From the IMG/VR virus record IMGVR_UViG_3300020281_001373: DNA of 20,000 bases. The stretch is one strand, 5' to 3'. Of the stretch, positions 558 to 20,000 are shown in pieces (positions within the stretch are counted from its first letter, which is position 1; each line of letters begins with the position of its first letter). Under the pieces are notes generated by a model that was not told the origin of the DNA, ran no database searches, and saw only the letters and a program-made list of their open reading frames with translations. Source of the DNA: an uncultured virus (IMG/VR IMGVR_UViG_3300020281_001373) (Duplodnaviria; Heunggongvirae; Uroviricota; Caudoviricetes). Made by a program: the position numbers and the translations under genes.

Positions 558-1213
558 TGTCATACTTTCAAAACTTTCAAAGATTAGTATATCAATTTCC
601 TGATGATATAAAAAGAGTTATTACTGATCTATCAATCAGACCTAAATTCAGGGATAATGTTTTAGAGAATGCTAATAATTTTGAATTCTATAATTGTAAT
701 GATGGAGATACACCAGAGATTATTGCTTATGAACAATATGGTGATTCTAATATGCATTGGGCAATATTAATTGCAAACAATGTTATGAGTATCTATAATG
801 ATTGGGTGAAAGATCAGGCTCAATTTAAAGAATTTTTATTTCAAAAATATAAAACACAAACTGATAGTGATGGAGCTACAGTCACTTTAACAAGAACTGG
901 AGTCACAGAGTTTACACAATTTGTTGGTACATCTTCAAATGATTTTTCTAGCTATGTGACTGGTACAACTGTAAGAACTAGACCATCTCATTTTGAGGAT
1001 ACAAATAAAGTTTATTACTCTTATGATAGTATTGTAAATAATGGTTCTGGTAAAGATGCATTTGGAAATGGAATATCCTATCCAACTGTATCTCCAGTAT
1101 CGATAGAAACTGTAGAAGATAGATTGAATGAAGAAAAAAGAACTATCATTATTCCTACAGAAGAAGTAGTCGAGAAAATGCGTAAAGAAATCAAAGAGTA
1201 TGTAAATGGATAA
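557..1213 (+). CDS. gp53: Baseplate wedge protein, T4 gp53-like
   Basis: MSYFQNF start, LysM-like DGDTPEIIAYEQYGDSNMHWAILIANN and C-terminal EDRLNEEKRTIII are characteristic. TAATG overlap with the upstream gene. Confidence 0.88.
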   Translation: MSYFQNFQRLVYQFPDDIKRVITDLSIRPKFRDNVLENANNFEFYNCNDGDTPEIIAYEQYGDSNMHWAILIANNVMSIYNDWVKDQAQFKEFLFQKYKTQTDSDGATVTLTRTGVTEFTQFVGTSSNDFSSYVTGTTVRTRPSHFEDTNKVYYSYDSIVNNGSGKDAFGNGISYPTVSPVSIETVEDRLNEEKRTIIIPTEEVVEKMRKEIKEYVNG

Positions 1214-2393: not shown

Positions 2394-3667
2394 TGTTAGA
2401 TGGAAAAATGTATTGGTTTACTGGTGTCGTTGAAGATAGAAATGACCCGATGTCTATGGGTAGAGTAAAAGTAAGAGTACATGGTATACACACAGATGAT
2501 AAAGCCTTAATTCCTACAGAAGATCTACCATGGTCTCATGTAATGACACCTATAACATCTTCTTCTCTTGGTGGTATAGGTACATCAGCAACTGGTATAC
2601 AAGAAGGTTCTTGGGTCATAGGTTATTTTTATGATGGTGCAGATATGCAAGAGAATATTATTCTTGGTACACTACCATCCAGACCATATAAACCTAATCC
2701 TGAACTTGGATTTTACGATCCTACAGGTATCAATCCAATAAGAAATACTGGTGTAGACACACCATTCTCTGCTACGGATGAATTTGATAATCATGTTTCA
2801 TATATAACGAAGGTTGATTTAAGACAAGATAAAGTAGAGACGGCTATTCCACCATTTTTAAAAACAGTAAGTATAGATGAAGAAGACGATCCTAAATTTG
2901 AAAGAAAAACATGGAATAGTCCAAAAGTACAAAGAGATAAGGAGCCAATATATCCATTTAATAAAGTGACTGAAACAGAACGAGGTCACGTATTTGAAGT
3001 AGATGATACACCAACAAATGAAAGAATATCCATGTTTCATAGAACTGGTACAAACTTTGAAATTCAAGATAATGGTGATATGACATCCACAGTGGTGGGT
3101 GATAACTATACGGTGATATTTGGTAGTGATAGAATATATGTAAAAGGTAATGTAGATATTACAATTGATGGAGATGTAAGAGAACTAATTAAAGGTAATT
3201 ATCATTTAGAAGTAGAGAAAGATTATACAGTAAATGTAAAAGGTTCTCGTAATACTGCAATAGGTAATAATGAATTAATTGAAATTGGTCAGGCATACTC
3301 AGCTAATATCACAAATGACTATACAACAAGAATTGGTGGTCATGAAATAAGAATTGTAGACAAATCAAGAAACACAACAATCGGTGATTCAGAAGATTTA
3401 ACAGTCACAACAAATATGAATGAGATAGTTTCTGGTAAGAGAGATATGTTTACTAAACTAGGTCATACTCATATAGTCACCGATAAATTAAATATATCAG
3501 CATTGGATGATATTACGATTGGTACAAAAGCCAATCATATTGAAACAATTAAAGGTAATAGAACAGAAAACATAACAGGCGACGTAAGCGAAACAGTAGG
3601 TGGAAATGTCACCGAAGCTATTACCGGAAACTTGGATATTGATGCCGCCAGAATTGATTTGAACTAA
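2390..3667 (+). CDS. gp5: Baseplate central spike, T4 gp5-like (OB-fold plus beta-helix, no lysozyme domain)
   Basis: WFTGVVEDRNDPMSMGRVKVRVHGIH..LPWS OB-fold, YPFNKVTETERGHVFEVDDTP..ERI motif, V.G./I.G. beta-helix repeats and a blunt end IDAARIDLN. Start moved to ATG 2390, which forms an ATGA overlap with the hub stop. Confidence 0.92.
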   Translation: MMLDGKMYWFTGVVEDRNDPMSMGRVKVRVHGIHTDDKALIPTEDLPWSHVMTPITSSSLGGIGTSATGIQEGSWVIGYFYDGADMQENIILGTLPSRPYKPNPELGFYDPTGINPIRNTGVDTPFSATDEFDNHVSYITKVDLRQDKVETAIPPFLKTVSIDEEDDPKFERKTWNSPKVQRDKEPIYPFNKVTETERGHVFEVDDTPTNERISMFHRTGTNFEIQDNGDMTSTVVGDNYTVIFGSDRIYVKGNVDITIDGDVRELIKGNYHLEVEKDYTVNVKGSRNTAIGNNELIEIGQAYSANITNDYTTRIGGHEIRIVDKSRNTTIGDSEDLTVTTNMNEIVSGKRDMFTKLGHTHIVTDKLNISALDDITIGTKANHIETIKGNRTENITGDVSETVGGNVTEAITGNLDIDAARIDLN

Positions 3668-5563: not shown

Positions 5564-5564
5564 T

Positions 5565-6766: not shown

Positions 6767-6770
6767 CCTA

Positions 6771-6778: not shown

Positions 6779-6792
6779 GATAGAGGTAAATT

Positions 6793-6969: not shown

Positions 6970-6980
6970 AGAGGTAAACT

Positions 6981-7430: not shown

Positions 7431-7439
7431 GAGTATATT

Positions 7440-8094: not shown

Positions 8095-8396
8095 ACACCA
8101 AAACTTTCACCACAACCACATGCGGCTGTAGCATTAGGATTGTTTATTACTAATTGTGAACCAGCAAACTGTTCAACATAATCTATTTCAGAACCATAGA
8201 TATACATCTCAGCAATCTTATCTACAACAATAGTATCTTCAATTAGTACACCATCATCTGTTGAATCTGTAAATGTCCATGAATATTCAAAGCCAGCACA
8301 ACCACCACCTTTCATAGATAGATGCGCGTACTTTTTATCCTGATTACTAATTTTTTCAGTAATGTATTGTTTAGCTTGTGGAGTTATACTAAGCAT
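8091..8396 (-). CDS. iscA: A-type Fe-S cluster carrier (IscA/SufA/HesB family)
   Basis: ITPQA, GGGCAGFEY, GSEIDY and NPNATAACGCGESF, with all three cysteines intact. Confidence 0.93.
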   Translation of the reverse strand: MLSITPQAKQYITEKISNQDKKYAHLSMKGGGCAGFEYSWTFTDSTDDGVLIEDTIVVDKIAEMYIYGSEIDYVEQFAGSQLVINNPNATAACGCGESFGV

Positions 8397-8968
8397 TAAT
8401 TAAAGGTCTTTCCTGTAAATTGAGCTGAACCGCCAGTGTCTTCAATTGTAAATGTATCAAATGAAGATACTGTTGTTCCACCTAATGTTAAAGAAGAACC
8501 TGTTATACTTGAAAATGTAGCTCTTGTAGCTGTCAGTGTACTATTAGTATCAAATGTAAGATTAGGTAAATTGACATCTGTCATGAATGTAATAGTGCCA
8601 GAAGATTTTACATTCAGAGAACCTTCAATATCTACACTACCTCTAAGATATGTTTTTCCTACTTGGTTTGTTGTACCGTAGTTAGTCCAGACATCATCAG
8701 AATCTGTACCATAGAATATTGCAGTACCATTAAAACTATCTGAATCAGAACCAAGATAAACACCACCCTGTTTAATATCAATGGTTGAACCTGTAAAGAT
8801 GGTAGTACCTCTAATACCGACATTACCATTAAAGATAGATTGGCCCGTCACTTCTAATCCAGGAAGTGTGACACTCTCTGGATTTTCAAAACCAGTTAAA
8901 TTACCATCTTCATCAAATGATAATGAGCTGATTATATCTGCATGTTTTCTTGTTTTACTCTTAGCCAT
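8396..8968 (-). CDS. Short tail-fibre-like virion protein
   Basis: G/S/T-rich beta-strand repeats (LEVTGQSIFNGNVGIRG, GSVDIEGSLNV) and MAKSKTR N-terminus. Confidence 0.55.
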   Translation of the reverse strand: MAKSKTRKHADIISSLSFDEDGNLTGFENPESVTLPGLEVTGQSIFNGNVGIRGTTIFTGSTIDIKQGGVYLGSDSDSFNGTAIFYGTDSDDVWTNYGTTNQVGKTYLRGSVDIEGSLNVKSSGTITFMTDVNLPNLTFDTNSTLTATRATFSSITGSSLTLGGTTVSSFDTFTIEDTGGSAQFTGKTFN

Positions 8969-8972
8969 ATAT

Positions 8973-8980
8973 TATTTAAT
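8973..8980 (-). promoter_or_regulatory. Late-promoter-like ATTAAATA, 4 nt before ATG 8968
   Basis: Minus strand reads GATTAAATA-ATAT-ATG. TAAATA core, intergenic. Confidence 0.45.
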
Positions 8981-8981
8981 C

Positions 8982-10226
8982 TTAACTAGGGTCCATAAAC
9001 TGAAATGTAGCAACTGTTGAACCAGTTGCGTTTATAATAGTAAGGTTATACTTACTTGGTATTGATACTTTTTGACCAGCAAGTGTAAACCCATCACTAT
9101 CAAAGTTTGCACGGCCTTCATTACCTTGTAATGATAGAGTACCATCAGAGTCTGCAATATTACCAGTGACGGTCATATTAGTTCTTCTTGACCTATTTCC
9201 AAAACTGCCATCACCATCTGAATCATATAATGGTGCAATTTTAAATGTTCCAGTACCTGTAAGTGGACTTGAAGTAGAGTTTAAAAATCTTACATATGAT
9301 TTACCAACTACTTGCTTTGGTTGAATAAATGAACTCATTGCTTGTTCATTTTGAGCATTCATATTTTGTCTGTTTTGACCACCTTTCTGTGTATCATAAG
9401 AGCCATCATCTTGTCTTTCAAGATAAAATCCCGAGTCTGAATCTGAATCATCTCCTAAGAATCCGAATGTGACATCAGTTGCTTTAAAAATTACTTTACC
9501 TTGTAAGTCTAATGTACCAAAACTTACGAATACAGTATTCTCAGAGTCATGCACGTTTGCTGCACTTTTTGGATAACCAAATTGTAATGGTGTAGTTTCA
9601 CCAGAAACTCTTGCAATATTGATAGTTTGACCACCTTGCTTTCTTCCAAAAATTACATTAGAACGCTCGACATATCTACCAATCTTCTTTTTTATTAGAA
9701 AATCATTTGCAATGCTCGTGCCATTTGCATAGAGTGAATCAGAATCCAGTGGAAACTTTCTATGCGCGTTTATCATATTATAAACTCTATCAGTAGTTGG
9801 GAAAATATTATCATCTCCCTTAAATAAGTATTGTCCTTTGAATGTTGTAGTTGTATCTGAATCTGAACCTAAAATAGCATCACGAAAACCTGACCTATAA
9901 AACTGCGTGATTTCTGCTGCATTAGGGAACATTTCACCAACAATAGGGTTATTAGTAGAAGAAAATCTATTGTATAAGTCTGAATCTGGTTGATTTTGTA
10001 AACCCTGTAGAATTCCTCTCGATGTCCTGTAAAAATCGTCTGTCTCATTTGAATTGTGTGCTATCTGGAAACGACCTACGTTAAGCTTTCCAAATTTTAT
10101 TGATGTATTATTACTGTTTCCAAAAATTACGGCATCAGAATCATCAGACAAATAGAACTTACCACCAGGACCAGTGGGATTTGAGATATTTGCTACTCTT
10201 CTTGTTTTAGATATTTTTCGTGCCAT
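8982..10226 (-). CDS. Putative virion/fibre protein, DSD-rich
   Basis: 414-aa ORF, G/S/N/F-rich, about 9 DS[DE] sites, SKTRR N-terminal motif, and a C-terminus resembling that of 8396..8968. Confidence 0.55.
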   Translation of the reverse strand: MARKISKTRRVANISNPTGPGGKFYLSDDSDAVIFGNSNNTSIKFGKLNVGRFQIAHNSNETDDFYRTSRGILQGLQNQPDSDLYNRFSSTNNPIVGEMFPNAAEITQFYRSGFRDAILGSDSDTTTTFKGQYLFKGDDNIFPTTDRVYNMINAHRKFPLDSDSLYANGTSIANDFLIKKKIGRYVERSNVIFGRKQGGQTINIARVSGETTPLQFGYPKSAANVHDSENTVFVSFGTLDLQGKVIFKATDVTFGFLGDDSDSDSGFYLERQDDGSYDTQKGGQNRQNMNAQNEQAMSSFIQPKQVVGKSYVRFLNSTSSPLTGTGTFKIAPLYDSDGDGSFGNRSRRTNMTVTGNIADSDGTLSLQGNEGRANFDSDGFTLAGQKVSIPSKYNLTIINATGSTVATFQFMDPS

Positions 10227-10232
10227 AACATT

Positions 10233-10634
10233 CTAAAAATTAAAAATTCTTGGTATATCTTTTGTGTTGTCATTTATATCAGATGGTCCTTGCAATGCAT
10301 CTCTTATGGCACCAGTTGTAGCACCACCACCTCTCACAAGACCAGATCCTGAAACTTTTAGATCTGCATTGGAGGCATTGTTTACTATACCGCCACCTGA
10401 ACCAAAGCCACCAGAACCTAAAATATTTCCATCTACTATGACTTTAATATAAGTTGCCTTTGAAAAATGTGGTATTGTGAGTGCTGATATTCCAGGTAAT
10501 GATGTAAGATTTACACCTTCTGGAATTTCTATAATTACTGATGAAACGGATGTTCTTTCAACTTCAGATGGTTCTACAATATAACCAACTTGATCTGATG
10601 TGATTTTTTTATAGTATTGAGAATGTACATGCAT
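10233..10634 (-). CDS. Small glycine-rich adhesin-like protein (T-even gp38-like)
   Basis: VIIEIPEGVNLTS...SALTI.....YIKVIVDGNILGSGGFGSGGG...GLVRGGG resembles the beta-helix-to-polyglycine transition of gp38 adhesins. Start moved to ATG 10634, just after the upstream stop. Confidence 0.5.
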   Translation of the reverse strand: MHVHSQYYKKITSDQVGYIVEPSEVERTSVSSVIIEIPEGVNLTSLPGISALTIPHFSKATYIKVIVDGNILGSGGFGSGGGIVNNASNADLKVSGSGLVRGGGATTGAIRDALQGPSDINDNTKDIPRIFNF

Positions 10635-10635
10635 T

Positions 10636-11076
10636 TTAGCCTGCCGATGCTTCAGTGAAGAACCATTTACTACCGTCAAATGTTCCTGAAGCCATCTTAG
10701 CAGAATCGCCTAATGTTGTTCCTTTAGCTCCGGTTCCCCAATCAATTGTTAATGTACCATTTGAAACGATGGATAATTGTGAACCTGTAATCCAACCAGA
10801 AGTAGGAACTGTGACTGTACCAACACCAGTATGAATTACTGTTGTCACAAAACTTCCAGCAATGACATTATCATTCGCTGTTAAATTCTGTACGCTTCCT
10901 AGAGACCCAGACATTGCAATACTGTTAGCAGCAATATCACCAGAACTTACATTACCACTCACATTGAGAGTGCTAGATGTAATACCTTGAGTAATGATAT
11001 TAGTTATATCAGCATTCGCATCTTGTTGTATAAGATTTGGTAATTCTGCGAATCTTCTAGTTTTTGATTTTGCCAT
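10636..11076 (-). CDS. Short tail-fibre-like protein
   Basis: AGGAG SD, MAKSKTRR N-terminus, beta-shaft (LNVSGNVSSGDI) and fibre-tip-like TVTVP..GW..GSQLSIVSNGTLTI.....TL.......FDGSKW. Confidence 0.6.
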   Translation of the reverse strand: MAKSKTRRFAELPNLIQQDANADITNIITQGITSSTLNVSGNVSSGDIAANSIAMSGSLGSVQNLTANDNVIAGSFVTTVIHTGVGTVTVPTSGWITGSQLSIVSNGTLTIDWGTGAKGTTLGDSAKMASGTFDGSKWFFTEASAG

Positions 11077-11090
11077 AATTTCTCCTACTA

Positions 11091-11098
11091 TATTTATT
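11091..11098 (-). promoter_or_regulatory. Late-promoter-like AATAAATA
   Basis: Minus strand reads AATAAATA-TAGT-AGGAG-AAATT-ATG (11076). Confidence 0.6.
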
Positions 11099-13208
11099 AT
11101 CCACTTTCACGTTTGAACCAAACCTGTACATTCATTTGTATTGGGTCAATTGGGTTTGAACTTGCATCCCAGGTTCTTACTCTGATTGCTCTATTATTTG
11201 GATTTGCTATAAGTGGTTTACCACCAAATACATCAATTGTTAAACCTGTATCTGAATCTGCTCCAGGACCAGGTGCTACTGCATTTGTTCCTTGAGCATC
11301 AATTGATGAGAATATAGGCTGACCTTGAGGTGCACATGTTGATACTGCCATTGACATATAGAATCCATTTGTATCATTTACTGGTACAACCTCAGAATCT
11401 AATAAGAAGTAATATACACCTTCAGCGTGTCTTGAATATTTTAATTGATCTGAGTCAAAACCAAATGTTGCTCTATCAATAATTTTATTTGGATTAGGAC
11501 CATTATCTGAGTCAAATGATACTCTCAACCATGCTGCTGTTAGTGGAGTTTCTCTAATTGCATCTGCAAATTGGTGTGTCCATTGACCACCTGAATATAC
11601 TAATGCTTCACCAATTCCAGGTTGTTGACCATCGACTGCTTCATCTACATTTGATAGCTGACCAAGAGAACTTACACCAGCAGTTGGACCACTAAATGAG
11701 TATACTGCAACAAAGTCATTTACATTTAGTTTTGTTGGGAATAATATGTCATTTCCATTTACCTGATACTCAAGCACTGGTACTTGTGATAATAGTAATC
11801 CATTCAGGAATACCAATACGTTTTGTGGGTCATTTGAAGTTTGTAATACTGGTGAACAATCTACTAATCCAGTTGTAAATCCTGGATGATCAGAATCATT
11901 TACTGTAAATGTATGTTCTAATGTTTGGAATGCTTCTGATGGTAATCTGTTTCCACCTAATTGGTTTGATACGTTTCTTATCCATACAGCGGATAATTCA
12001 TCTGAATCTTTAACATAGTTATCTGAATCAAATGCAATCATTCTAGATGCTGCATATTCTGCTATTTGATCTGAGTCAGAATCATAGAAATAGAAATCTC
12101 CTTGTGCTTGTGATAGATTAATACCATTTAAGAATATAAGTGGATTACCACCAACACGAGCAACAATAAAGTCAGAATCATTATAGATATCTGAATCTAT
12201 CATTCTAAATGTTTGGTGAGTACCATTTGCACTTTGTGTTAAATTACGTGATTTTCTGTAGACAACAAAATCTGAATCTGCAAATCTAAAGTTCTTGTAG
12301 AAGTGAGCTACAGTTTCATCAATAGGTGATATAATAGAAACTTCATCATTTGCTTTTAAACTACCATAAAATTTTATTGCATCTGATGGACCAGAAACTA
12401 CCTGATCAACATCTTTAGTTGTGACATTCGCAAGTATCTTATAATCAATGAATGCATACTTATCTGAATCTGAATCTCTTGTTGTGGTACCCGCACCAGT
12501 GGGAGAACGACCATCTCCAAATGCATCTGAATCAACTGGTTGTAGGTGACCATTTACAAATACAACGGCATTTGCATTTGAAATTACTTTTGAGAAACCA
12601 ATCTTTGTATCTGAATCTGTAATTGATTGTGGTGATACTGCCGCTGATTGAAAGTCAATTGTGAAATTACCAGTCGCATCCGGATCTTGTGGTTCATACT
12701 TATTACCAGTCCATCTTAAATATTGTCCAACAGTTGGACCTTTGTCAGCATTCATATCACTCATTAATCGAGTGGCCATTTCAGCTTGTAATTCTTTTAG
12801 TTTAGGGTTATAGTTTATATTTGTTGTTGCTAAATCACTTCTACTCTTTGCTACCACTGCATTTACAAGAGCATCCATAAAATCACTATCAAAGTGTTGA
12901 CCAGATCTTATATTTACTGTTGCTGCTGTGTCAATAGCTACTTTTCTGTTAGCATCTTTCTGTACTTTTTCAAATACAATTTTATCTTTAATTTTTGTTG
13001 AATGTCTTGTTTCAATTGTGGGATTAGCCTGATCAGGTTTTACTACAAAGATATCACTATCTTTTCCTGAATCATAACTTGCATTATCTCTTTTAACGGA
13101 TAACGTAGTAAATGTTTCAATTGTATTATCACTATCAATACGTGATTTAGTTCCGTCTACAACAAATCCAGCACCTAATTTTGATAAATCTCTTGTCTTT
13201 GTACCCAT
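11097..13208 (-). CDS. Virion structural / tail-fibre-associated protein, DSD-rich
   Basis: Three VF[VL]NG-type beta domains (VVFVNGHLQ, LIFLNGINL, LVFLNGLLL..EYQVNGNDILF), two fibre hinge motifs (PTVGQYLRWTGNKY; SLGQLSNVD..PGIGEALVYSGGQW) and about 17 DS[DE] sites. Confidence 0.7.
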   Translation of the reverse strand: MGTKTRDLSKLGAGFVVDGTKSRIDSDNTIETFTTLSVKRDNASYDSGKDSDIFVVKPDQANPTIETRHSTKIKDKIVFEKVQKDANRKVAIDTAATVNIRSGQHFDSDFMDALVNAVVAKSRSDLATTNINYNPKLKELQAEMATRLMSDMNADKGPTVGQYLRWTGNKYEPQDPDATGNFTIDFQSAAVSPQSITDSDTKIGFSKVISNANAVVFVNGHLQPVDSDAFGDGRSPTGAGTTTRDSDSDKYAFIDYKILANVTTKDVDQVVSGPSDAIKFYGSLKANDEVSIISPIDETVAHFYKNFRFADSDFVVYRKSRNLTQSANGTHQTFRMIDSDIYNDSDFIVARVGGNPLIFLNGINLSQAQGDFYFYDSDSDQIAEYAASRMIAFDSDNYVKDSDELSAVWIRNVSNQLGGNRLPSEAFQTLEHTFTVNDSDHPGFTTGLVDCSPVLQTSNDPQNVLVFLNGLLLSQVPVLEYQVNGNDILFPTKLNVNDFVAVYSFSGPTAGVSSLGQLSNVDEAVDGQQPGIGEALVYSGGQWTHQFADAIRETPLTAAWLRVSFDSDNGPNPNKIIDRATFGFDSDQLKYSRHAEGVYYFLLDSEVVPVNDTNGFYMSMAVSTCAPQGQPIFSSIDAQGTNAVAPGPGADSDTGLTIDVFGGKPLIANPNNRAIRVRTWDASSNPIDPIQMNVQVWFKRESG

Positions 13209-13212
13209 AGTC

Positions 13213-13220
13213 TATTTAAT
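13213..13220 (-). promoter_or_regulatory. Late-promoter-like ATTAAATA, 4 nt before ATG 13208
   Basis: Minus strand reads GATTAAATA-GACT-ATG, the same motif and spacing as 8973-8980. Confidence 0.45.
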
Positions 13221-13221
13221 C

Positions 13222-15573
13222 CTAGTTGACCATTGTGTGATACTCAATTGTAATCACATCATCTATAGCGGTGTTTACCGCAAAGTTAATTGTAATGTTA
13301 GAACCTGATACCGCAGATGAACTAATATCTACGGTGTGATTCACTAAAGCAGTACCTAATCTATTAAAAGATTTTGAATTTAATTGTCTTACACCATTAT
13401 GAAATACTTTCACATTATCTGCAATCGGTGGTGTGACTGTACTTGGTACTACAAATGTAAATGATGAATATGAACCTTCCGAATCATTTACTATATGTTC
13501 TTGTGTTATCATTCTAAATGATTCAGCAATATGTTTTGAGAATATTTGGTCTATATCACTATCATCTCTTATTGCTTGAACAACTCCTCTTGCTGTTCTT
13601 TTTTGCAAGTCTGAATCTGAATCAAATGTTTGAATGTAATTTTTCTTTAATGTTGCTTTTAAATTTGTACCAGTGACAAGATCATCTGAGTCTAATCTTT
13701 GTACTCTATCTAAAATAAGGTTATCAAATCTCACACGTAGATCTGAATCTCTACCCATTGAATCAGAATCTGCTGGTACTGAACTCTCAGATATTCTGTT
13801 TAGTAGTGAGGTAAATGTTCTTGAAACTAGTTCAGAATCAGAATCTAGTTTTAGTATTTCTTTTCTTGCTACACTTTGTAGTAGACTGTTCTCAGAATCT
13901 TGATTTATTAACTGATTTATAACTATATCAGATAGTCTGTTTTTAATTAATAGACCATCATCAGAATCTGAGTCTATCACTCTCATTACTATATCATTAG
14001 CAATCTTAAGTCTATCTGAGTCTGTGACTGAATTAATTAATGCTGTTCTTATGATTCCTAGTTCTGAATCATTACCTTGTAGATATGCGAGTTCAGAATC
14101 ACCAGTACCATATACAAATTCTCTTAATGGTTTATTAACTTTTTGTCTATGATTCTTTTCATCACTATCACCGATGTTAACACCATTTCCACCAAGATAT
14201 CTTACTACTGTTCTTTCTACAAATCTTTTATTAATAGCTTTGAATTTTCTTGCAAATGATGGATGATACAAGTAATAGTTTGTATGTGTTCTCTTACCAC
14301 CGCTTGTTGCTCTAGTTCTATAATCGGAATCTTTTAATTCCATCATAGTGTCTGAATCGACAGCACCAAGTCTGAGTCCCATGAAACCCCAGAAGTTAAC
14401 ATTTCTAGCTATTACATCTGCAATAAAATCTGAATCTTTTCTTGTAGCTGCAAATACACCAGGTGTGACTTTCTTATCATAACCTAATGAATATCCTTCT
14501 GAGTCTGAATCTGTAAGAACTCCTTTACCTTGCAATGAATCAATTGTTCCTGCAACACCAGCAAAGCCTTGAAACTCTGAGTCACGTGCAAGGTGACCAT
14601 AATCCAGATAATCATAGAATAAGTTGAAATGACCTTGATGTAATGGTTGCGATCTTCTTACAACGGTTTGATATGTTGCACCTAATCTACTAGCAAGTAA
14701 GTTTGAACCATAAGTTCTTGTATGACCGGCATTCGTAAAGTCTGAATCTAGTATAACACCTTCAACAACCGCAGATGCTAGTTTTCTTCTCAAATAATAT
14801 AGTCTATTTCTAGTTGTATCTGAATCAATTAAATTGTTTGTGTCTGAGTCGTGTCTTAGTGAACCATAAGAGATGTCTCTGTTAAATGGTAATAGATTTC
14901 TTTCAGTAGAACTTGCTGCTCTTCTTAAACCAATGGCATTTTCTTCAAAGTAATCTAGGAATACTTCAAGAAAATCTGTTGCCGCGGGTAAATCAGAATC
15001 ATAGTGTGCAGGTAAATTTTTAGCAATAGTTTTATATCCATCACTGTCGTTCTTTACAACATTTAATTCACCTTGTAGCCTTCTTAATTCTACCTGATCG
15101 TATCTTAAGAAGTTTATAAAGTATGCTTTTAGTAATGTTTTAAAACTAACAAATTTAGATGATGAGTCAGAGTCTGCCGCAAGTAAAACATGTGGTGCTC
15201 CTCTGTAAGTGTTTCCAGCACCATCATCATAGGAAATTGGTATGCTGTCTATAAATGTTCTGAGTTTTGACCAGTCGGCTTGATTTGGACCGGTACCATT
15301 ATCAATTGCAGAAGTCTTACTCCAGCCAGATGGCTTTCCATAATATTCTACGAGGTGATCGCTGTCTATATTTTGATATATAGTATTAATGACATCTGAA
15401 TCCATGGTGCGTGCGATAGCGCGAACATAGTGTCTGAGGTCATCAGATACACGTTTCGAGTCGTGTGCCGTTACGCCACGAGAGTCATATATTTTTGAGA
15501 TTTTAGCCCATTCAGAACGTAAACCCGTTACGTCGGTTTGAAATGGTCGTATCTCGGAATCATTTAATGCCAT
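13222..15573 (-). CDS. Large DSD-rich putative virion protein
   Basis: 783 aa, mostly helical-looking, about 27 DS[DE] sites. C-terminal NVKVFHNGVRQ...ITINF....IDDVITIEY is the same domain type as in the 703-aa protein. Confidence 0.6.
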   Translation of the reverse strand: MALNDSEIRPFQTDVTGLRSEWAKISKIYDSRGVTAHDSKRVSDDLRHYVRAIARTMDSDVINTIYQNIDSDHLVEYYGKPSGWSKTSAIDNGTGPNQADWSKLRTFIDSIPISYDDGAGNTYRGAPHVLLAADSDSSSKFVSFKTLLKAYFINFLRYDQVELRRLQGELNVVKNDSDGYKTIAKNLPAHYDSDLPAATDFLEVFLDYFEENAIGLRRAASSTERNLLPFNRDISYGSLRHDSDTNNLIDSDTTRNRLYYLRRKLASAVVEGVILDSDFTNAGHTRTYGSNLLASRLGATYQTVVRRSQPLHQGHFNLFYDYLDYGHLARDSEFQGFAGVAGTIDSLQGKGVLTDSDSEGYSLGYDKKVTPGVFAATRKDSDFIADVIARNVNFWGFMGLRLGAVDSDTMMELKDSDYRTRATSGGKRTHTNYYLYHPSFARKFKAINKRFVERTVVRYLGGNGVNIGDSDEKNHRQKVNKPLREFVYGTGDSELAYLQGNDSELGIIRTALINSVTDSDRLKIANDIVMRVIDSDSDDGLLIKNRLSDIVINQLINQDSENSLLQSVARKEILKLDSDSELVSRTFTSLLNRISESSVPADSDSMGRDSDLRVRFDNLILDRVQRLDSDDLVTGTNLKATLKKNYIQTFDSDSDLQKRTARGVVQAIRDDSDIDQIFSKHIAESFRMITQEHIVNDSEGSYSSFTFVVPSTVTPPIADNVKVFHNGVRQLNSKSFNRLGTALVNHTVDISSSAVSGSNITINFAVNTAIDDVITIEYHTMVN

Positions 15574-15602
15574 TGGTCACCAATTATAAAGTATACTTGT
15601 TT

Positions 15603-15610
15603 TATTTATT
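15603..15610 (-). promoter_or_regulatory. Late-promoter-like AATAAATA driving the minus-strand cassette
   Basis: TATTTATT on the + strand within the divergent intergenic gap; left arm of a 10-bp inverted repeat. Confidence 0.65.
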
Positions 15611-15617
15611 CTTAGTG

Positions 15618-15625
15618 AATAAATA
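15618..15625 (+). promoter_or_regulatory. Late-promoter-like AATAAATA, 4 nt before gp25 ATG
   Basis: GAATAAATA-ATTC-ATG with no SD; right arm of the inverted repeat. Confidence 0.65.
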
Positions 15626-15629
15626 ATTC

Positions 15630-16037
15630 ATGGCAATACAACAGACATTTCAAAGAAAAAGCAAATATAAGGATTTTGATCTGAACTTTACAAAACACCC
15701 TCTTACTAATGATCTTGCGGTCAAAAAAGGTGTTGCAGCAGTAAATCAATCTGTGAAGAATTTAATTCAAACTGCGTTCTATGAGAGACCGTTTCAACCG
15801 ACACTTGGTTCTCAAGCAAGAAGTCTTTTATTTGAGACTGCTGATGCTATTACTATATCGAACATGAGAAGAGTTATCAAAGAGGTAATTCAAAATCATG
15901 AACCACGAGTACGTATAAAAAATATTGTCATAAGAGATATGACAGATTCTAATGCTTATGGCATTGAGTTAAGATATGAAATGAAAGATATAAAAACAGA
16001 TGAGAACCTAAGCATAGTTCTCGAAAGATTGAGGTAA
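15630..16037 (+). CDS. gp25: Baseplate wedge protein, T4 gp25-like
   Basis: YKDFDLNFTKHPLTND, AVNQSVKNLIQT..YERPFQPTLGS...LLFE and I.NHEPRV. Confidence 0.93.
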   Translation: MAIQQTFQRKSKYKDFDLNFTKHPLTNDLAVKKGVAAVNQSVKNLIQTAFYERPFQPTLGSQARSLLFETADAITISNMRRVIKEVIQNHEPRVRIKNIVIRDMTDSNAYGIELRYEMKDIKTDENLSIVLERLR

Positions 16038-16039
16038 TA

Positions 16040-17854
16040 ATGCCAGACGAAAGACCAGTTGTAGCAAATCCTGATTTTGAAGATATAAAACAGGATATAA
16101 TTTCACATTTTAAAGCAGACGCAACATTTGCAGACTATGATTTTAAAGGTTCAGCAATGAACACCATCGTAGATATTCTTGCATATAATACTCATTATAA
16201 TAATCTAGCGGCAAATTATCTTATAAATGAATCATTCTTAGACACAGCACTTATGAGAAATAATATTATTTCTATATCTAAGATGTTAAACTACACACCT
16301 CGTTCTAAACAAGCCGCAAAAGCAAAGATTACTCTCAGAATTCCAAAGATAAACGATACAAATGTTTATACGATTCCATCAGGTAGTTTATTTACCGCTA
16401 CTGATGGTACAACCACATTTAATTTTTATACACTGAAAAACTTTAGTGTTCAATATGATGCTTCAGATGCGAATGGTACTACAAGAGATGTTGAAGTAGA
16501 AATATGTGAAGGTGATAAGATCACACAAAGATTTTCTGCAACTGCAGATCATACTAGCTTTCCTAGATTTGAATTAGGTAATAAGAATATTGACACTACA
16601 TCTATAAATGTTTCTGTAAATGGAAGTTTATGGACACCAGTCACAAATGAAACTCAAGGAACAACTGATGTTTCAAATCTAAGTACAATATATTTTATAG
16701 AAGAATCAAGAAACCTATCACATAATATTATGTTTGGTAATGGTGTTCTTGGAAAAAAACTAGAAGTTGGAGATGAAATATTAGCTACATACCTCGTCAC
16801 TAACGGATCAGATGCAAATGGTATCAATTCATTCTCAGTTGGAATAGCTGGTAGATCTGACATTACAGTAGTCACTACAAAATCTGCCACTGGTGGTGGA
16901 GATATGGAAACAATTCAAGAGATAAAAGATAATGCACCAAATTGGTTTCAAGCACAGTTTAGAGCTGTGACAGAGAATGATTATAAAGCCATATTAAAAA
17001 AGGAGTATGCAGATATTCAAGCCTTAAATGTATATGGTGGAGAAACTGTAGGTAAACCTGGTAAAGTATTCTTTTCAATCAAGCCAAAATCTGGTGATAA
17101 ACTAACTGAACAAGCAAAGCTAACAATAACAAGAGATATACTTTCTAAATTTAACTTAGTGACTGTCACACCTCAAGTTGTAGACCCACTTATTACAAGA
17201 ATCATTGCAAAGACAGTTATACAATATGATAATGCTAAACTTGCAACAAGCCCAGAAGTATTAGAAGCTAAAGTATTATCATTATACAATATCCTAAACA
17301 CATCATATATTGGTGATTTCATGGAATCATTCTCAGTATCAAGATTAATGCAAGAGATTTTAAAACTAGATAAAGCTATTACTGCTGTAAATCCGAGAGT
17401 AAATTTAAGATTCAATCTAAATGCAAAAGATGGTTTATTAGATAATTCATCATTTACATTTAATAATAGACTACACACTGAACCATTTGCTGGTGAAGCA
17501 TCTGTTGGTGGTGTAATCACATCAAACTTATTTAGAAGATCTGGTAGAACAAACTTTTCTAGATTTGTAGATGATGGTAAAGGAGTTATAAGACTTGTAG
17601 ATGTTATTGAAGGAGAAAATGTAATTGTAAACACCGCCGGCGGTACAGTAAATTATGAAACAGGTGAGGTAAATATTAGTGACTTTGACCCAGAAGATGG
17701 ACAGATAGGTATCATAGCGGTACCAGAATCTTTTGATGTTAATGTTGCTGGTAATTATCTTTTACAAATATCTACAGGAGATTCTACAGTGAGAGCGATA
17801 GATAAAGACGACACAGCTTCACTGAACTTATTTAATGTATCGAGAGCAAGTTAA
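16040..17854 (+). CDS. gp6: Baseplate wedge protein, T4 gp6-like
   Basis: DFEDIK, F.DYDFKGS....VDILAYNTHYN, NESFLDTA..R, LNYTPRS, FGNGVLGK, Q.RAVTENDY and GTVNYETGEV. Confidence 0.93.
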   Translation: MPDERPVVANPDFEDIKQDIISHFKADATFADYDFKGSAMNTIVDILAYNTHYNNLAANYLINESFLDTALMRNNIISISKMLNYTPRSKQAAKAKITLRIPKINDTNVYTIPSGSLFTATDGTTTFNFYTLKNFSVQYDASDANGTTRDVEVEICEGDKITQRFSATADHTSFPRFELGNKNIDTTSINVSVNGSLWTPVTNETQGTTDVSNLSTIYFIEESRNLSHNIMFGNGVLGKKLEVGDEILATYLVTNGSDANGINSFSVGIAGRSDITVVTTKSATGGGDMETIQEIKDNAPNWFQAQFRAVTENDYKAILKKEYADIQALNVYGGETVGKPGKVFFSIKPKSGDKLTEQAKLTITRDILSKFNLVTVTPQVVDPLITRIIAKTVIQYDNAKLATSPEVLEAKVLSLYNILNTSYIGDFMESFSVSRLMQEILKLDKAITAVNPRVNLRFNLNAKDGLLDNSSFTFNNRLHTEPFAGEASVGGVITSNLFRRSGRTNFSRFVDDGKGVIRLVDVIEGENVIVNTAGGTVNYETGEVNISDFDPEDGQIGIIAVPESFDVNVAGNYLLQISTGDSTVRAIDKDDTASLNLFNVSRAS

Positions 17855-20000
17855 TGGCCAAACACATACTGCCAATAGTCAAGTCGCAGTTGCCGGAGTT
17901 CATAAGATCGGAACATCCGCAGTTTCAGCTATTTGTAGATGCATACTATGAGTATCTAGAAAAACAATCAGATAGTGATTCCACTTCAGCACTAAATCTT
18001 TTTAAGTCAGTACCTAATGCTGGTGATCTTATAAACAATGCTGAACAATATCGTGATGTACACACAACACTAGATGAATTCAAAGAGTACTTTCAAAGAC
18101 AACTAACACCATTCGTAATCACTGGTAATAAAGTCACAGACGGTATTATCCTTCAAAAAGCAAGAGATGTATACCTATCAAAAGGTTCGCCAAATTCATT
18201 TGCACTCTTATTCAGAATGTTATATGGTGAGGAGATTGATCTCTTTGAACCAAAGAATCAGATTCTTATTTCTTCTGAATCACTATATACATCTTTTGTA
18301 CAAATAAAAGCTGAAGTAGTTCAGAACGAATCTAATCTAGGTGATTTCAATTATGAGTTATCTACAATACGTTTAGATAGTGACACGGTCGATAGTGATG
18401 CTTCTACAAATATACTTACTGTATTAGATGGAACATTTACTGGTGTCACAAAAAATAATAAGACAGTTCTTACTTTATATCTAACTAAAAATCCTGATTC
18501 TGATTTTGGTGGTTTACTTGTACCAAGAAGAGAGGTACTGTTAAGAGATTCACAAGATCAAACAAAAGAAGTCAGAGTAAGATTATTAAATCACTTGGGA
18601 GATGTAAGTCTTACATCTGGTGGTTCTGGATTTAGAGTTGGTGATAAGTTCTTTGTAAGAGATTCTACTACCACTATACCAGTTCAGGTGACTAAGGTCG
18701 GTGCTGGTGAGATTGATAGAGTGATGATAAGAAATAGAGGAACTAACTATCGTATTGGAGATACTATAGAATTTTTAGATCCTTCATCGGGTGCTGGTGC
18801 ATTAGCTTTCATCACAGGTGTAGATGAACAAGGATCTGTGACACAGATTGATGGTTCAAATGTAAGATTAGGTGTAAACAATACAGGTTATCTTTCAGAA
18901 GACTTTGAACCAGTCATTGTACCTATCATTCAAAAAGGACAGTATACACATATACCAAAACCATTCATAAGAACAAATACTGGTACTGGTTTGATTGTAA
19001 GTGGTTTATCCTCAGAAGTAGGAAGGATATTAGAAGTATCAACACCACAAACTGGATTCTTTGATTCAGATAGCTTTGGTGTACCAACGCTTGAAAGTCC
19101 GATGGGTATTAGAATTACAAATGAAGAAGCAATTGATGTTGGTAATGTTATTGAGTTTCAGCATTTCACACCAGATTCAGAAGCAGGTTCATTGAGACAT
19201 GATAGTGAAGTTATAACAATTGACCTGCGTATATTTGACTCTGACGGTATTACAAATGATAGTGATACTTTATATTGGGCAGGTATGGAAGAATTCGGTT
19301 CTAATATTCTATACAGTACTGATAGAAGTCCAAGAGACCATTATGCTCCTGGAAGTAGGTCAGATTCTGAAAGTCAGAATAATAATGGTATTTCAAAAGG
19401 CGGCCTTAGCTTTGATTCAAATTTTGATGACCTTAAATTTGAGGGTAGAAGAAATGGTCTGATGAGTACTCAATATGTGAAAGGTGAAGTTCGAGTAGAT
19501 GGTGATTTATTATTTGGTGATACATATTATGATTATCACTTTGTAAACTATTCATCAAACAGAAAGTATTTCTTTAAAAGTGGATTAAAATTTAAACCAA
19601 TTAGAATGCCTATAGCATGGGATTCAGAAAATTACAGATGGAAAATACGAACTATTAAGTACTATGATTCAGATGGTGATAGTGACTTTATTGAAAGATG
19701 GAAAGCTGATTCTGAATTTGATATTCAAGGTATTACACCAACATATTATTCATGGGAAAAAGGTCAACCAGGTCCAAATAAATGGGCAAGATGGGTAAGT
19801 GCCTGGGCTGCTGTTGATGGACAACAATTACAACAAAGAGATTCAGATGGTAGATTTACAACTACAATGGTAGCCTCTTCTGGTGCTGATGATACTTTTA
19901 CTAACGCAATTACACATACAACAAGAGTTGCTGGTAAACCTGGACAAAGATATGGATATCCAATAAACAGATTAGATTCTGATGTATATGATTTAGGTCA
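17854..20000 (+). CDS. gp7: Baseplate wedge protein, T4 gp7-like (3' partial, more than 715 aa), DSD-rich
   Basis: Not in the ORF track. Hand translation from ATG 17854 (TAATG overlap with gp6) is open to the window end: IVKSQLPEFIRSEHPQFQLFVDAYYEYLE and KARDVYLSKGSPNSFALLFRMLYGEEI. Confidence 0.85.
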   Translation, partial: MAKHILPIVKSQLPEFIRSEHPQFQLFVDAYYEYLEKQSDSDSTSALNLFKSVPNAGDLINNAEQYRDVHTTLDEFKEYFQRQLTPFVITGNKVTDGIILQKARDVYLSKGSPNSFALLFRMLYGEEIDLFEPKNQILISSESLYTSFVQIKAEVVQNESNLGDFNYELSTIRLDSDTVDSDASTNILTVLDGTFTGVTKNNKTVLTLYLTKNPDSDFGGLLVPRREVLLRDSQDQTKEVRVRLLNHLGDVSLTSGGSGFRVGDKFFVRDSTTTIPVQVTKVGAGEIDRVMIRNRGTNYRIGDTIEFLDPSSGAGALAFITGVDEQGSVTQIDGSNVRLGVNNTGYLSEDFEPVIVPIIQKGQYTHIPKPFIRTNTGTGLIVSGLSSEVGRILEVSTPQTGFFDSDSFGVPTLESPMGIRITNEEAIDVGNVIEFQHFTPDSEAGSLRHDSEVITIDLRIFDSDGITNDSDTLYWAGMEEFGSNILYSTDRSPRDHYAPGSRSDSESQNNNGISKGGLSFDSNFDDLKFEGRRNGLMSTQYVKGEVRVDGDLLFGDTYYDYHFVNYSSNRKYFFKSGLKFKPIRMPIAWDSENYRWKIRTIKYYDSDGDSDFIERWKADSEFDIQGITPTYYSWEKGQPGPNKWARWVSAWAAVDGQQLQQRDSDGRFTTTMVASSGADDTFTNAITHTTRVAGKPGQRYGYPINRLDSDVYDLG

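Follow-up and report, generated by a model that had tools for sequence, protein, structure and literature searches.

A strict Asp-Ser-Asp/Glu motif in the outer tail proteins of an uncultured marine T4-like phage, a candidate sequon for serine modification

Gene content of the window

The window analyzed here is a 20,000-nucleotide stretch from the contig of an uncultured marine T4-like phage, and its genes lie on both strands (Table 1). Pfam and PHROG searches matched the 783-aa protein to no family, and megablast, together with a tblastn search using this protein, found no close cultured relatives among 50,697 phage records. The product of gp7 is 1432 aa long in the contig and carries 32 D-S-[D/E] sites, while gp6 has none in any relative examined. 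Late-promoter-like ATAAATA words form a divergent pair, with one copy (15603-15609, minus strand) upstream of the 783-aa gene and the other (15619-15625, plus strand) upstream of gp25. The window has 5 matches to this word where 11.9 would be expected, but three of these closely precede a gene start in the matching orientation. Across the contig, 23 of 118 genes have ATAAATA within 60 nt upstream compared to about 1.6 hits expected by position; no enrichment was found for the full T4 late-promoter word, TATAAATA. The genome also contains the iron-related genes FecR-like, NifU, and IscA/ErpA (window 8091-8396).

Table 1. Features of the window and of the candidate enzyme region, with D-S-[D/E] counts (window positions unless G000 is given)
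Feature	Position	Strand	Remarks
gp53 wedge	557..1213	+	Inner-baseplate control; 1 site
gp5 hub/spike	2360..3667	+	Control; 1 site
149-aa protein	6981-7430		
190-aa Thr/Ser/Gly-rich protein	8396..8968	-	2 sites vs 0.18 expected
414-aa lineage-specific protein	8982..10226	-	10 sites vs 0.36 expected
Two overlapping small ORFs (148 and 146 aa), Ser/Gly/Thr-rich	10233..11076	-	0 sites; conserved in relatives
703-aa lineage-specific protein	11097..13208	-	19 sites vs 0.84 expected
783-aa lineage-specific protein, presumed outer tail/baseplate	13222..15573	-	31 sites vs 1.14 expected
Divergent late-promoter-like ATAAATA pair	15603..15625	both	Word matches
gp25 baseplate wedge, inner baseplate	15630..16037	+	PF04965; 0 sites
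gp6 baseplate wedge, 604 aa	16040..17854	+	0 sites
gp7, N-terminal 715 aa	17854..20000	+	Continues past window; 16 sites vs 0.82 expected
DxD-family paralogue 1, 260 aa	G000 71783-72565	-	A4 HMM, 440 bits
DxD-family paralogue 2, 227 aa	G000 73200-73883	-	A4 HMM, 88.5 bits
PF05118 gene	G000 74877-75644		In DxD-family gene island

Enrichment and level of selection

An initial sequence-only reading had counted about 70 D-S-[D/E] sites between positions 8396 and 20000. The repetition is real but was slightly undercounted, as computation gave 78 sites versus about 3.3 expected from the composition of each protein. Hand counts of 27, 17, and 9 for the 783-, 703-, and 414-aa proteins became 31, 19, and 10, and those for the 190-aa protein (2), the visible part of gp7 (16), gp6 and gp25 (0 each), and gp53 and gp5 (1 each) were reproduced exactly. 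Contig-wide statistics, based on 118 ORFs from a simple ORF caller, place DSD (139 observed versus 14.0 expected, z = 33) and DSE (45 versus 10.4, z = 10.8) first and second of all tripeptides in 109 kb. The anticipated enrichment over a composition null was therefore borne out, and it is specific to residue order and identity: SDD and DDS (11/14.0 observed/expected each) are not enriched, nor are ESD (4/10.4), ESE (6/10.4), DTD (4/13.1), or DTE (6/9.9).

The sites concentrate in 16 rich outer-tail proteins, which hold 178 versus 9.6 expected, so that Asp-Ser-Asp/Glu occurs at about 18 times its chance frequency in exposed loops of the outer tail, neck, baseplate, and fiber proteins. The excess did not disappear on shuffling, since 500 per-protein shuffles of these 16 gave a mean of 9.5 (sd 2.9) and a maximum of 20.

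Selection on the motif acts on the protein. Ser codons at the sites (TCA 39, TCT 22, AGT 13, TCC 2, AGC 1, TCG 1) follow those used elsewhere (TCA 88, TCT 49, AGT 43, TCG 8, AGC 6, TCC 5), as do Asp codons (GAT 108 and GAC 26 at sites, 104 and 25 elsewhere). With codon use at the sites no different from the background, and with genes on either strand, the motif is not a DNA word, as the sequence-only reading had argued. Between G000 and its relative G001, 138 of 143 sites are retained at the aligned position, with a flanking identity of 84%, and synonymous codon turnover at retained sites (22%) equals the background (25%). BLASTP (E<1e-3) found neither homology among the 16 rich proteins nor internal repeats. 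The codon, shuffle, homology, and synonymous-turnover results together refute an artefact arising from a DNA repeat, composition bias, or common ancestry of the proteins, and we give that explanation a negligible chance.

Within the 16 rich proteins, D is the only enriched first residue of x-S-[DE] and S the only enriched middle residue of D-x-[DE] (178/9.6 in both cases; T 2/8.1), and at the third position of D-S-x only D (135/6.4) and E (43/3.2) are over-represented. Glu at position 1 and Thr, Ala, Gly, and Asn at position 2 show no enrichment, and non-acidic third residues stay near or below expectation (A 5/4.7, I 4/4.6, L 3/4.6, V 2/4.9, T 4/6.0). Pro never directly follows the motif, and the flanks are otherwise almost free, with preferences of at most about 2-fold; the most frequent following residue is Gly (26/178). 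Spacing along the chain is near-random, dispersed rather than paired, and its sole excess is DSDSD (10 versus 4.2). These data support the view that D-S-[D/E] behaves as a strict three-residue sequon.

The same grammar bears on an alternative in which the motif is an unmodified acidic surface element that binds Ca2+, Mg2+, or Fe3+ from seawater or presents a hydrated negative surface, with proposed roles in stability, reversible adhesion to the host envelope, and not sticking to particles. The sequence-only reading had likewise offered Ca or Fe binding. An acidic, exposed motif often followed by Gly in a genome with FecR-like, NifU, and IscA/ErpA genes would suit this alternative, and two sites form full D-x-D-x-D-G loops (one being DSDGDG at residue 335 of the 414-aa protein). 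However, these two are the only ones of 178 sites to match the canonical calcium-loop pattern D-x-[DN]-x-D-G, which the other 176 lack. Position 2 is free in calcium loops, whereas Ser is obligatory here, and neither the other position-2 residues nor the same-composition SDD and DDS are enriched. The dispersed spacing, a sister lineage that keeps D-S while preferring Ala and excluding Glu at position 3, and a depletion in non-tail proteins for which this alternative gives no rationale also count against it. We therefore consider an unmodified acidic surface unlikely, and metal binding a weaker reading than a sequon.

Distribution among proteins and structural setting

Outside the 16 rich proteins, which are unrelated to each other, the remaining 102 proteins contain 6 sites versus 14.8 expected (P = 0.008), and proteins outside the rich set of G001 contain 8 versus 21.1 (P = 0.001). 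The same filter gave ratios of 0.63 to 0.93 for G003 to G006, HTVC008M, and Melnitz, a comparison that includes G003, which bears a sister motif in its tail proteins. Equal frequency in non-virion proteins, which would have counted against the sequence-only reading, was thus not found. One site was counted in the capsid protein and none in the tail tube. In the sheath, all 5 sites fall between residues 101 and 283, a region that the Pfam matches to the conserved inner domain do not cover, and all 5 sites of gp15 follow residue 221, beyond its Pfam domain. D-S-[D/E] is confined to outward-facing parts of the tail.

Structural mapping used an AF2 model of the gp8-like protein (pLDDT 91.4, pTM 0.89), which has the T4 gp8 fold (Foldseek 1n7z_A, E 5.4e-11, probability 1.00); the model of the 783-aa protein, built with 12 sequences, reached a pLDDT of only 36.3 and was not used. 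In the gp8 model, the Asp of each of the 10 sites is either in coil or a terminal residue of an element (P = 0.012). Among the 25 gp8 sequences of the clade, 112 of 129 motif Ser residues lie in coil, element edges, or insertions, versus 747 of 1048 other Ser residues (Fisher p = 9e-5). The surface loops predicted for the sites by the sequence-only reading therefore appear in the model as loops, element edges, and clade-specific insertions.

Such positions are also where a local structural device would lie, that is, an Asx/ST turn or a helix or strand N-cap favored by the lineage with nothing reading the motif, and many sites precede helices in the low-confidence 783-aa model. Turn and cap motifs, however, usually accept Thr and Asn, both of which are excluded here. 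Orthologues of the same fold (HTVC008M, Melnitz, and 54 outgroup gp8 sequences) manage without the motif, and within this phage it is avoided in the inner tail, the head, and the enzymes, which makes a structural device highly improbable.

Conservation, clade, and sister lineage

The motif is retained over long divergence. Homologues of the 783-aa protein (P0001-P0011), with identity as low as 35%, contain 20 to 47 sites each, and in the five distant ones the site Asp is kept in 77% of alignment cells versus 43% for other Asp residues and the site Ser in 69% versus 30% for other Ser residues. Orthologues of the 703-aa protein in L004, L005, L006, L017, and L018 have 18 to 19 sites each. In the gp8 tree, a 25-row clade with an SH-like support of 100 includes 24 rows with at least 2 sites, compared to 2 of 56 outside, and the trait is absent from HTVC008M and Melnitz. 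D-S-[D/E] therefore marks one well-supported clade. At the 10 gp8 sites of the query, none of 54 outgroup sequences has the motif, so the sites are lineage-specific gains, a point that the sequence-only reading had proposed to check on gp7 and gp53.

Positions nevertheless turn over within the clade, with 129 gp8 sites spread across 44 alignment columns in 25 sequences, which suits a sequon selected for density better than fixed interfaces. Turnover thus weighs against a tag at which a partner other than an enzyme docks, for instance a decoration or cement protein, a chaperone of tail assembly, or a component of the host surface. So does the low binding energy to be had from a tripeptide whose flanks are almost unconstrained. 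Any reader of the motif, a docking partner included, would fit its confinement to the outer tail and its depletion in other proteins, but we regard this explanation as very unlikely.

The sister lineage has the same grammar with a different third residue, D-S-[A/D/S/G/N]. Ala is preferred at position 3 (116/12.7 observed/expected), D, S, G, and N are enriched too, I, L, and V are not, and Glu is excluded (1/6.2).

Candidate modifying enzymes

The best candidate writer of the motif, which we offer as a lead only, is a phage-specific DxD family whose alignment (A4) supplied the HMM used for scoring and in which D103 and D105 never vary among 49 sequences. A 215-aa gene lies between the two G000 paralogues; the group is located beside the tail module, convergent to the tail-fiber genes, with a late-promoter-like ATAAATA 18 nt upstream of its first gene. 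The family resembles glycosyltransferases, but the label is a weak one, drawn from a PHROG name, the DxD motif, and language-model neighbors (0.94-0.95) that share fewer than 170 features. The 227-aa protein (8e-11) and a G001 paralogue (7.6e-27) match phrog_1962, "glycosyltransferase", to which hhalign relates the family with a probability of 98.7. Pfam and PDB profile searches of A4 found no support, hhalign against a GT8-like neighbor gave a probability of 2.9, and a pattern-based scan of limited sensitivity across 185,579 species genomes gave a single 18-residue match.

Family and motif partly co-occur, with exceptions in both directions. In 23 viral loci where the family adjoins tail genes, D-S-x is among the top-enriched tail-side tripeptides in 19; the top two places go to DSD and DSE in 8, and DSA ranks first to third in 11, 7 of them first. 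Four of four further records agree. Because these loci are related to each other, several almost to identity, and the enzyme served to select 24 of them, shared ancestry inflates the association. In a control panel of 29 gp8-centered records, taken from the gp8-clade alignment search and mostly general gp8 relatives, 4 of the 10 with motif enrichment encode the family, as against 0 of the 19 without (Fisher p ~0.009, calculated by hand). It was not found in the sequence of the other 6 enriched records, including G003 (144 kb), L040 (66 kb), and L055 (57 kb), and it is present without D-S-x enrichment in L166, L167, L169, and L179. Separately, an enrichment of [HY]-A-N in L166 is a heptad fiber repeat, not a sequon.

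Other enzymes were considered in G000, G001, and G003, records that are 61%, 85%, and 87% complete. GT4 (PF00534) had no match in a six-frame search or in Pfam scans of ORFs, GT2 had none above the cut-off, and no Pkinase/Hanks kinase was found. An AGT-like glycosyltransferase was rejected; it is orthologous over its full length to T4 DNA alpha-glucosyltransferase (PDB 1y8z, E 9e-34), found in 656 cultured phage records, mainly T-even phages, and with a dCMP hydroxymethylase also on the contig (1b49, E 2e-61) it is accounted for by DNA modification. The 149-aa protein, common to G003 and absent from five motif-poor genomes, was also rejected, as it adjoins lysozymes in unrelated phages and occurs in Pelagibacter phage Mosig; it is more likely a lysis gene. 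A B12-radical-SAM gene, TauD genes, and a 233-aa UDPG-dehydrogenase-like gene are common to G001 and G003 only and are weak leads given the small genome sample.

The sequon could also serve another chemistry, either an acidophilic Ser kinase of phage or host or an Asp/Asn beta-hydroxylase-type oxygenase acting on the flanking Asp. Acidophilic kinases suit Ser flanked by acidic residues, as here, and PF05118 Asp/Asn beta-hydroxylase-like genes are present in G000 (1), G001 (2), and G003 (2), with the TauD-family genes of G001 and G003 absent from the five motif-poor genomes. Yet no Pkinase was found in these three records, PF05118 occurs in motif-poor G004 too, 2OG oxygenases are frequent accessory genes in marine T4-like phages, and Asp as the target leaves the strict Ser at position 2 unexplained. 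We judge these chemistries quite unlikely.

Interpretation and comparison with known systems

D-S-[D/E] is a selected, clade-specific motif, and we favor the reading that it is the acceptor sequon of a Ser-modifying enzyme, at a rough probability of 0.45. The motif lies in solvent-exposed loops of outward-facing tail, neck, outer-baseplate, and fiber proteins; an enzyme would read it and modify Ser in the cytoplasm late in infection. Ser O-glycosylation would be favored, phosphorylation being possible, and the tail surface would thereby gain a coat of uniform chemistry. The dense decoration of exposed tail proposed by the sequence-only reading gains from the sequon grammar, the loops, the outer-tail restriction, and the non-tail depletion, although no GT4 of the SdgB type and no Hanks kinase was found in G000, G001, or G003. 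A more specific version, in which a late DxD transferase attaches a sugar to the Ser of D-S-x to form a tail "glycocalyx" and position 3 co-diverged with the enzyme, is doubtful. It would imply a sequon code by clade, with D/E at position 3 here and A/D/S/G/N in the sister clade, and, if true, a genetically programmable coat with its own code in abundant uncultured marine T4-like phages.

The motif clade is common in ocean metagenomes. A modification of Ser would make this the first case of a T4-like phage with its whole tail surface decorated through a sequon, adding host-range or stability determinants invisible to sequence-based receptor-binding predictions. The tripeptide would then be a simple marker of outward-facing proteins in uncultured phages, and writer and sequon a compact pair for engineering. 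If Ser is unmodified, a strongly selected, obligatory D-S-[D/E] surface element would still demand a physical explanation. Literature searches found no description of such a motif system, in line with the sequence-only reading, which knew of none in T4-like phages.

Bacteroidota have a general O-glycosylation sequon, D-(S/T)-(A/I/L/V/M/T), which is modified in the periplasm. It resembles the phage motif as a three-residue sequon of Asp and then a hydroxy amino acid used in many proteins, and D-S-A of the sister lineage comes close to it. The analogy drawn by the sequence-only reading nevertheless fails for D-S-[D/E], because Thr is excluded (D-T-[DE] 2/8.1) and position 3 is acidic rather than methyl-bearing (DSA 5/4.7); phage tails, moreover, are presumably assembled in the cytoplasm.

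The analogy to staphylococcal Ser-Asp repeats holds for the acceptor tripeptide but fails on the tandem repeat and on the enzyme. SdgB O-GlcNAcylates the minimal peptide DSD (PMC8561734). Shared features are a DSD acceptor (139 in the contig), Ser flanked by acidic residues, surface-displayed targets, and a cytoplasmic enzyme, as proposed for the phage writer, although modification here is predicted. SdgB acts on long tandem (SD)n tracts in a few adhesins, whereas the phage has isolated tripeptides, DSE as well as DSD, in 16 folded proteins that are unrelated to one another; apart from 10 cases of overlap as DSDSD, their spacing is close to random. An SdgB-type GT4/GT-B enzyme was not found in the sequence of G000, G001, and G003.

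Mycobacteriophage virions are reportedly glycosylated by phage-encoded glycosyltransferases on C-terminal extensions of capsid and tail-tube subunits (attributed to Freeman et al. 2023). That chemistry is demonstrated, whereas the tripeptide tag over outer tail parts is known here from sequence. The mycobacteriophage writers are encoded near structural genes, and the DxD candidate likewise lies near the tail module, but the targets differ, with so few sites in the capsid protein and tube of this phage.

DS[DE] tripeptides are enriched far beyond composition

The window occupies positions 32961-52960 (G000:C1) of a single 108,915-bp viral contig (G000; GC 34%; 61% complete by CheckV) and is filled by a T4-like baseplate gene set (see the feature table). 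The closest cultured phages, Methylophilales phage Melnitz and Pelagibacter phage HTVC008M, share just 34% gp6 identity with it, and a search of 50,697 phage records returned zero matches to the 783-aa protein. A sequence-only reading had estimated about 70 copies of the tripeptide D-S-[D/E] between window positions 8396 and 20000; the actual total is 78. The five proteins which it named as rich hold 31, 19, 10, 2, and 16 sites against 0.2-1.1 expected, and it was also right that gp6 and gp25 have none and gp53 and gp5 one each. Across the 118 contig ORFs, predicted with our own simple ORF caller, DSD (139 observed/14.0 expected, z = 33) and DSE (45/10.4) are the top two over-represented of all tripeptides, and none of the reordered or conservatively substituted variants ESD, ESE, DTD, DTE, SDD, and DDS exceeds its expectation.

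The sites are concentrated in 16 proteins, which together carry 178 against 9.6 expected (maximum of 500 shuffles, 20). Four of these are the 783-, 703-, 414-, and 190-aa proteins of the window. The others are gp7 (32 sites), a gp8-like protein (10), a 2085-aa DUF4815 protein (10), neck protein gp13 (8), gp15 (5), a gp9/10-like protein (10), the sheath (5), and proteins of 280 aa (5), 724 aa (23), 330 aa (4), 126 aa (2), and 255 aa (2). BLAST at E<1e-3 detected neither similarity among the 16 nor internal repeats. Codon usage at the sites is the same as background. In the 84%-identical relative G001, 138 of 143 sites are at the same position as in G000; synonymous differences affect 22% of the codons at these sites versus 25% of other conserved D, S, and E codons. 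Background-like codon usage and normal synonymous turnover therefore indicate selection on the protein, as had been proposed from the DNA.

The tripeptide is strict. Within the 16 rich proteins, the residue after D-S is nearly always D or E, only D is favored before S-[DE], and only S is favored in the middle of D-x-[DE] (T 2/8.1, D 1/8.9). The flanks are almost unconstrained: G, L, F, and N are favored about 2-fold after the motif, where P never occurs and R and V are rare, and E does not precede it. Spacing along the chains is near random, except that the overlap DSDSD is frequent (10 versus 4.2) and a spacing of exactly 3 is absent.

The motif is specific to one clade, and a sister lineage carries a related one

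The tail modules of HTVC008M and Melnitz contain 2 sites each (8.1 and 5.8 expected, respectively), and their whole-genome counts are at expectation. Relatives in IMG/VR repeat the pattern of G000, with gp6 invariably at 0 sites; their identity runs from 84% (gp6) down to 64-66% (783-aa protein), and they include one contig from the branch with 35%-identical 783-aa homologues (P0009-P0011). Among 783-aa homologues at 35-39% identity, site Asp is kept in 77% of alignment cells and site Ser in 69%, compared with 43% and 30% for non-site Asp and Ser, and position 3 swaps D and E freely.

A search of 1.84 billion representative proteins for relatives of the gp8-like protein supplied 81 full-length rows for a FastTree phylogeny. 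A 25-row clade (SH-like support 100) has at least 2 sites in 24 of its 25 members versus 2 of the 56 rows outside, where HTVC008M and Melnitz also fall. None of 54 outgroup sequences bears the motif at the query's 10 sites, several of which lie within clade-specific insertions, so the suggestion of lineage-specific gains is borne out for gp8. The clade's 129 sites are spread over 44 alignment columns; the hot columns are occupied in 21, 15, and 11 of the 25 members and the others turn over. Selection on sequon density would be expected to leave just such a combination of fixed and moving sites.

The observed/expected ratio has a median of 0.97 over 80 gp8-centered T4-like loci; a minority are moderately enriched for DSD and DSA, though not for DSE. 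In the pooled tail-side ORFs of eight non-identical loci of this sister type, D-S is followed by A (116/12.7), D (48/12.5), S (46/14.6), G (39/13.4), or N (38/11.5), with E at 1/6.2 and K, R, P, and Y close to zero; x-S-A is enriched for D alone and D-x-A for S alone. D-S-[A/D/S/G/N] marks the tail proteins of a marine T4-like sister lineage (IMG/VR loci L168, L170-L178, and L180, and genome G003), in which position 1 must be Asp and position 2 Ser just as strictly. The lineages have the D-S core in common, and position 3 is lineage-dependent.

Sites lie on outer tail proteins and are avoided elsewhere

All five sheath sites fall within residues 101-283, between the Pfam-matched conserved inner domains (P=0.008), and all five gp15 sites are C-terminal of its Pfam domain (P=0.0007). 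The tube, portal, terminase, and all enzymes have 0-1 site each, the scaffold 0 against 1.81 expected, and the major capsid protein 1. Altogether, the 102 non-rich proteins of G000 contain 6 sites against 14.8 expected (P=0.008) and those of G001, which is not independent of G000, contain 8 against 21.1 (P=0.001). The same filter gave ratios of 0.63-0.93 in six comparison genomes (G003-G006, HTVC008M, and Melnitz), of which G003 bears the sister motif on its tail proteins.

AF2 modeled the gp8-like protein with confidence (pLDDT 91.4); the model matches T4 gp8 (1n7z, E 5e-11) and places the Asp of 10/10 sites in coil or at the edge of an element. Coil, edges, or insertions hold 112 of the 129 motif serines in the 25 clade members, versus 747 of 1048 other serines (Fisher p=9e-5, from related sequences). 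The expectation that sites would map to surface loops was therefore supported as to loop and edge placement; since the model was read as secondary structure rather than as coordinates, we infer that the motif is exposed on the outer tail.

We conclude that this is a genuine motif under selection, confined to one clade and located on the outer tail, with its exposure there predicted. For a strict tripeptide that is placed on outer parts but shunned in the rest of the proteome, the most economical explanation is that something reads it. Enzymatic modification of the serine is the reading to which we give most weight, at a probability of about 0.45, and glycosylation is the favored modification; SdgB (PMC8561734) is the only biochemical precedent known to us for DSD as acceptor. 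That the motif stays unmodified and acts through metal binding or electrostatics seems to us improbable. Full-text searches of literature outside subscription journals gave no paper on such a motif in phages, in agreement with the sequence-only reading.

A DxD family is a candidate writer

The phrog_1962 profile ("glycosyltransferase") is matched by a 227-aa protein of G000 and by a paralogue in G001, and a 260-aa protein of G000 is a further member of this family (the family HMM scores the 260- and 227-aa proteins at 440 and 88.5 bits; hhalign probability 98.7). The family comprises 50 clusters at 48-84% identity, from metagenomes only, with an invariant DxD motif. Neither Pfam nor PDB gave matches, and no cellular homologue turned up when 185,579 species genomes were scanned by pattern; the family's closest named language-model neighbors are GT8/Nucleotid_trans clusters, scores that serve as leads only. 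The three-gene group that holds both G000 members (71783-73883) is convergent to tail-fiber genes and has a late-promoter-like ATAAATA 18 nt upstream. The word also stands ahead of structural genes, among them those for the 783-aa protein, gp25, and the sheath.

Twenty-four IMG/VR loci, chosen via the enzyme, encode the family, and 23 of them include tail genes, whose tail-side ORFs we ranked by unbiased tripeptide enrichment. DSD and DSE rank 1 and 2 in 8 loci (enzyme identity at least 63%), and DSA ranks 1-3 in 11 (rank 1 in 7; enzyme identity 51-59%), often followed by DSD or DSS. No D-S-x enrichment was found in the remaining 4 of 23 (L166, L167, L169, and L179). The enzyme tree puts the change from D/E type to A type on one branch (support 100), and the unenriched loci are dispersed within the A-type clade. 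In L166, [HY]-A-N (22 and 9 copies in two fiber-like proteins) was considered as a sequon and rejected as part of a structural seven-residue repeat, x-A-N-x-A-[FY]-x.

We searched 29 gp8-centered records over their full length, 10 of them enriched for DS[DEA] (P<0.01). A glycosyltransferase or kinase common to rich genomes had been put forward as something to look for: the DxD family occurs in 4 of the 10 enriched and 0 of the 19 unenriched records, and is also missing from HTVC008M and Melnitz. In G000, G001, and G003, searches returned neither GT4 nor Pkinase, and GT2 gave no hit above its cut-off. G003 (144 kb, 87% complete) is among the enriched records that lack the DxD family. Several of the loci sampled are near-identical and 24 were selected through the enzyme; because all come from related clades, much of the association may reflect shared ancestry. 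The four loci without enrichment are counter-examples that call for caution; what the comparison adds is that this particular family is confined to motif-bearing lineages. We consider it doubtful that the DxD family is the writer.

Other enzymes and neighboring genes

The sole clear glycosyltransferase of G000 is a full-length orthologue of the T4 DNA alpha-glucosyltransferase, which we set aside because the dCMP hydroxymethylase on the same contig lets glucosyl-hmC DNA account for it. Directly after it come genes for an NAD-dependent epimerase and for a small nucleotidyltransferase akin to RfaE domain II and TagD; HTVC008M and Melnitz have no copy of the transferase. The hmC DNA of this marine T4-like phage is probably glycosylated, and the sugar may be an unusual one.

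Gene content was compared among motif-strong G000 and G001, sister-type G003, and motif-poor G004-G006, HTVC008M, and Melnitz. Whole G001 (152 kb) has in addition a GDP-mannose dehydratase/DegT aminotransferase/glycosyltransferase-like cluster and two TauD genes, and PF05118 and radical SAM are each represented by a second gene; the genome part expected to bear that cluster is missing from G000. Only five genes are common to G001 and G003 and absent from the five motif-poor genomes, and a role in lysis is the likelier one for one of these, which encodes a 149-aa window protein. Other GT-A genes (two GT25, one GT8) are present in G003, as are two sulfotransferases. SPASM-domain radical SAM enzymes are a class known to modify peptides and proteins. 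Their genes occur in enzyme islands of the D-S-A type, two genes away from the DxD family gene in L168 and adjoining a GT25 gene in G003.

Features of the window, its contig, and related loci
Feature	Sequence	Coordinates	Strand
gp48 (end), gp53, tail protein, gp5, PAAR protein, lysozyme	window		+
Lineage-specific ORFs of 190, 414, 148, 146, 703, 783 aa	window		-
gp25, gp6, gp7	window		+
PAP2-family phosphatase	window	4022-4597	+
HAD phosphatase	window	4594-5199	+
PAAR-motif ORF	window	5267-5563	+
419-aa protein without family match (longest ORF)	window	5487-6746	+
IscA/ErpA-like Fe-S insertion protein	window	8091-8396	-
ATAAATA	window	11091-11097	-
ATAAATA	window	15603-15609	-
ATAAATA	window	15619-15625	+
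dCMP hydroxymethylase (PDB 1b49, E 2e-61)	G000, outside window	3582-4310	-
MazG/PRA-PH-like pyrophosphatase	G000, outside window	4264-4689	-
T4 DNA alpha-glucosyltransferase orthologue, followed by NAD-dependent epimerase and small nucleotidyltransferase	G000, outside window	9558-12180	-
CsgF-like, CsgG-like, FecR-like, CHASE2-adenylate/guanylate cyclase cluster	G000	14546-20246	+
Alternative oxidase	G000	23340-23903	-
NifU-like scaffold protein	G000	26166-26600	-
DxD family, 260 aa	G000	71783-72565	-
DxD family, 227 aa	G000	73200-73883	-
Sugar-nucleotide cluster: GDP-mannose 4,6-dehydratase, DegT aminotransferase, GT8-like and phrog_1962-like genes, ketoacyl synthase, two TauD genes, mannose-6-phosphate isomerase cupin	G001	1719-11859	+
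SPASM-domain radical SAM	G003	72459-73418	-
SPASM-domain radical SAM	L168	8639-9409	+
Fiber-like protein, 22 [HY]-A-N	L166	861-4643	-
Fiber-like protein, 9 [HY]-A-N	L166	12822-15446	-

ATAAATA is probably the late promoter core. The window holds fewer copies than expected (5 versus 11.9), of which the three tabulated ones directly precede gene starts on the correct strand, and the word lies within 60 nt upstream of 23 of the 118 contig genes. Between gp5 and the lysozyme, the PAP2 and HAD phosphatases and the 419-aa protein are kept in relatives at 50-93% identity and missing from five other T4-like genomes; the longest 419-aa ORF overlaps the PAAR-motif ORF by 77 bases, and its real start probably lies further downstream. 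The gene for the IscA/ErpA-like protein adjoins the motif-rich genes, and the NifU-like scaffold and alternative oxidase are encoded elsewhere in the contig. The conserved CsgF/CsgG/FecR/CHASE2-cyclase cluster is found in several marine T4-like phages, G003 and HTVC008M among them.
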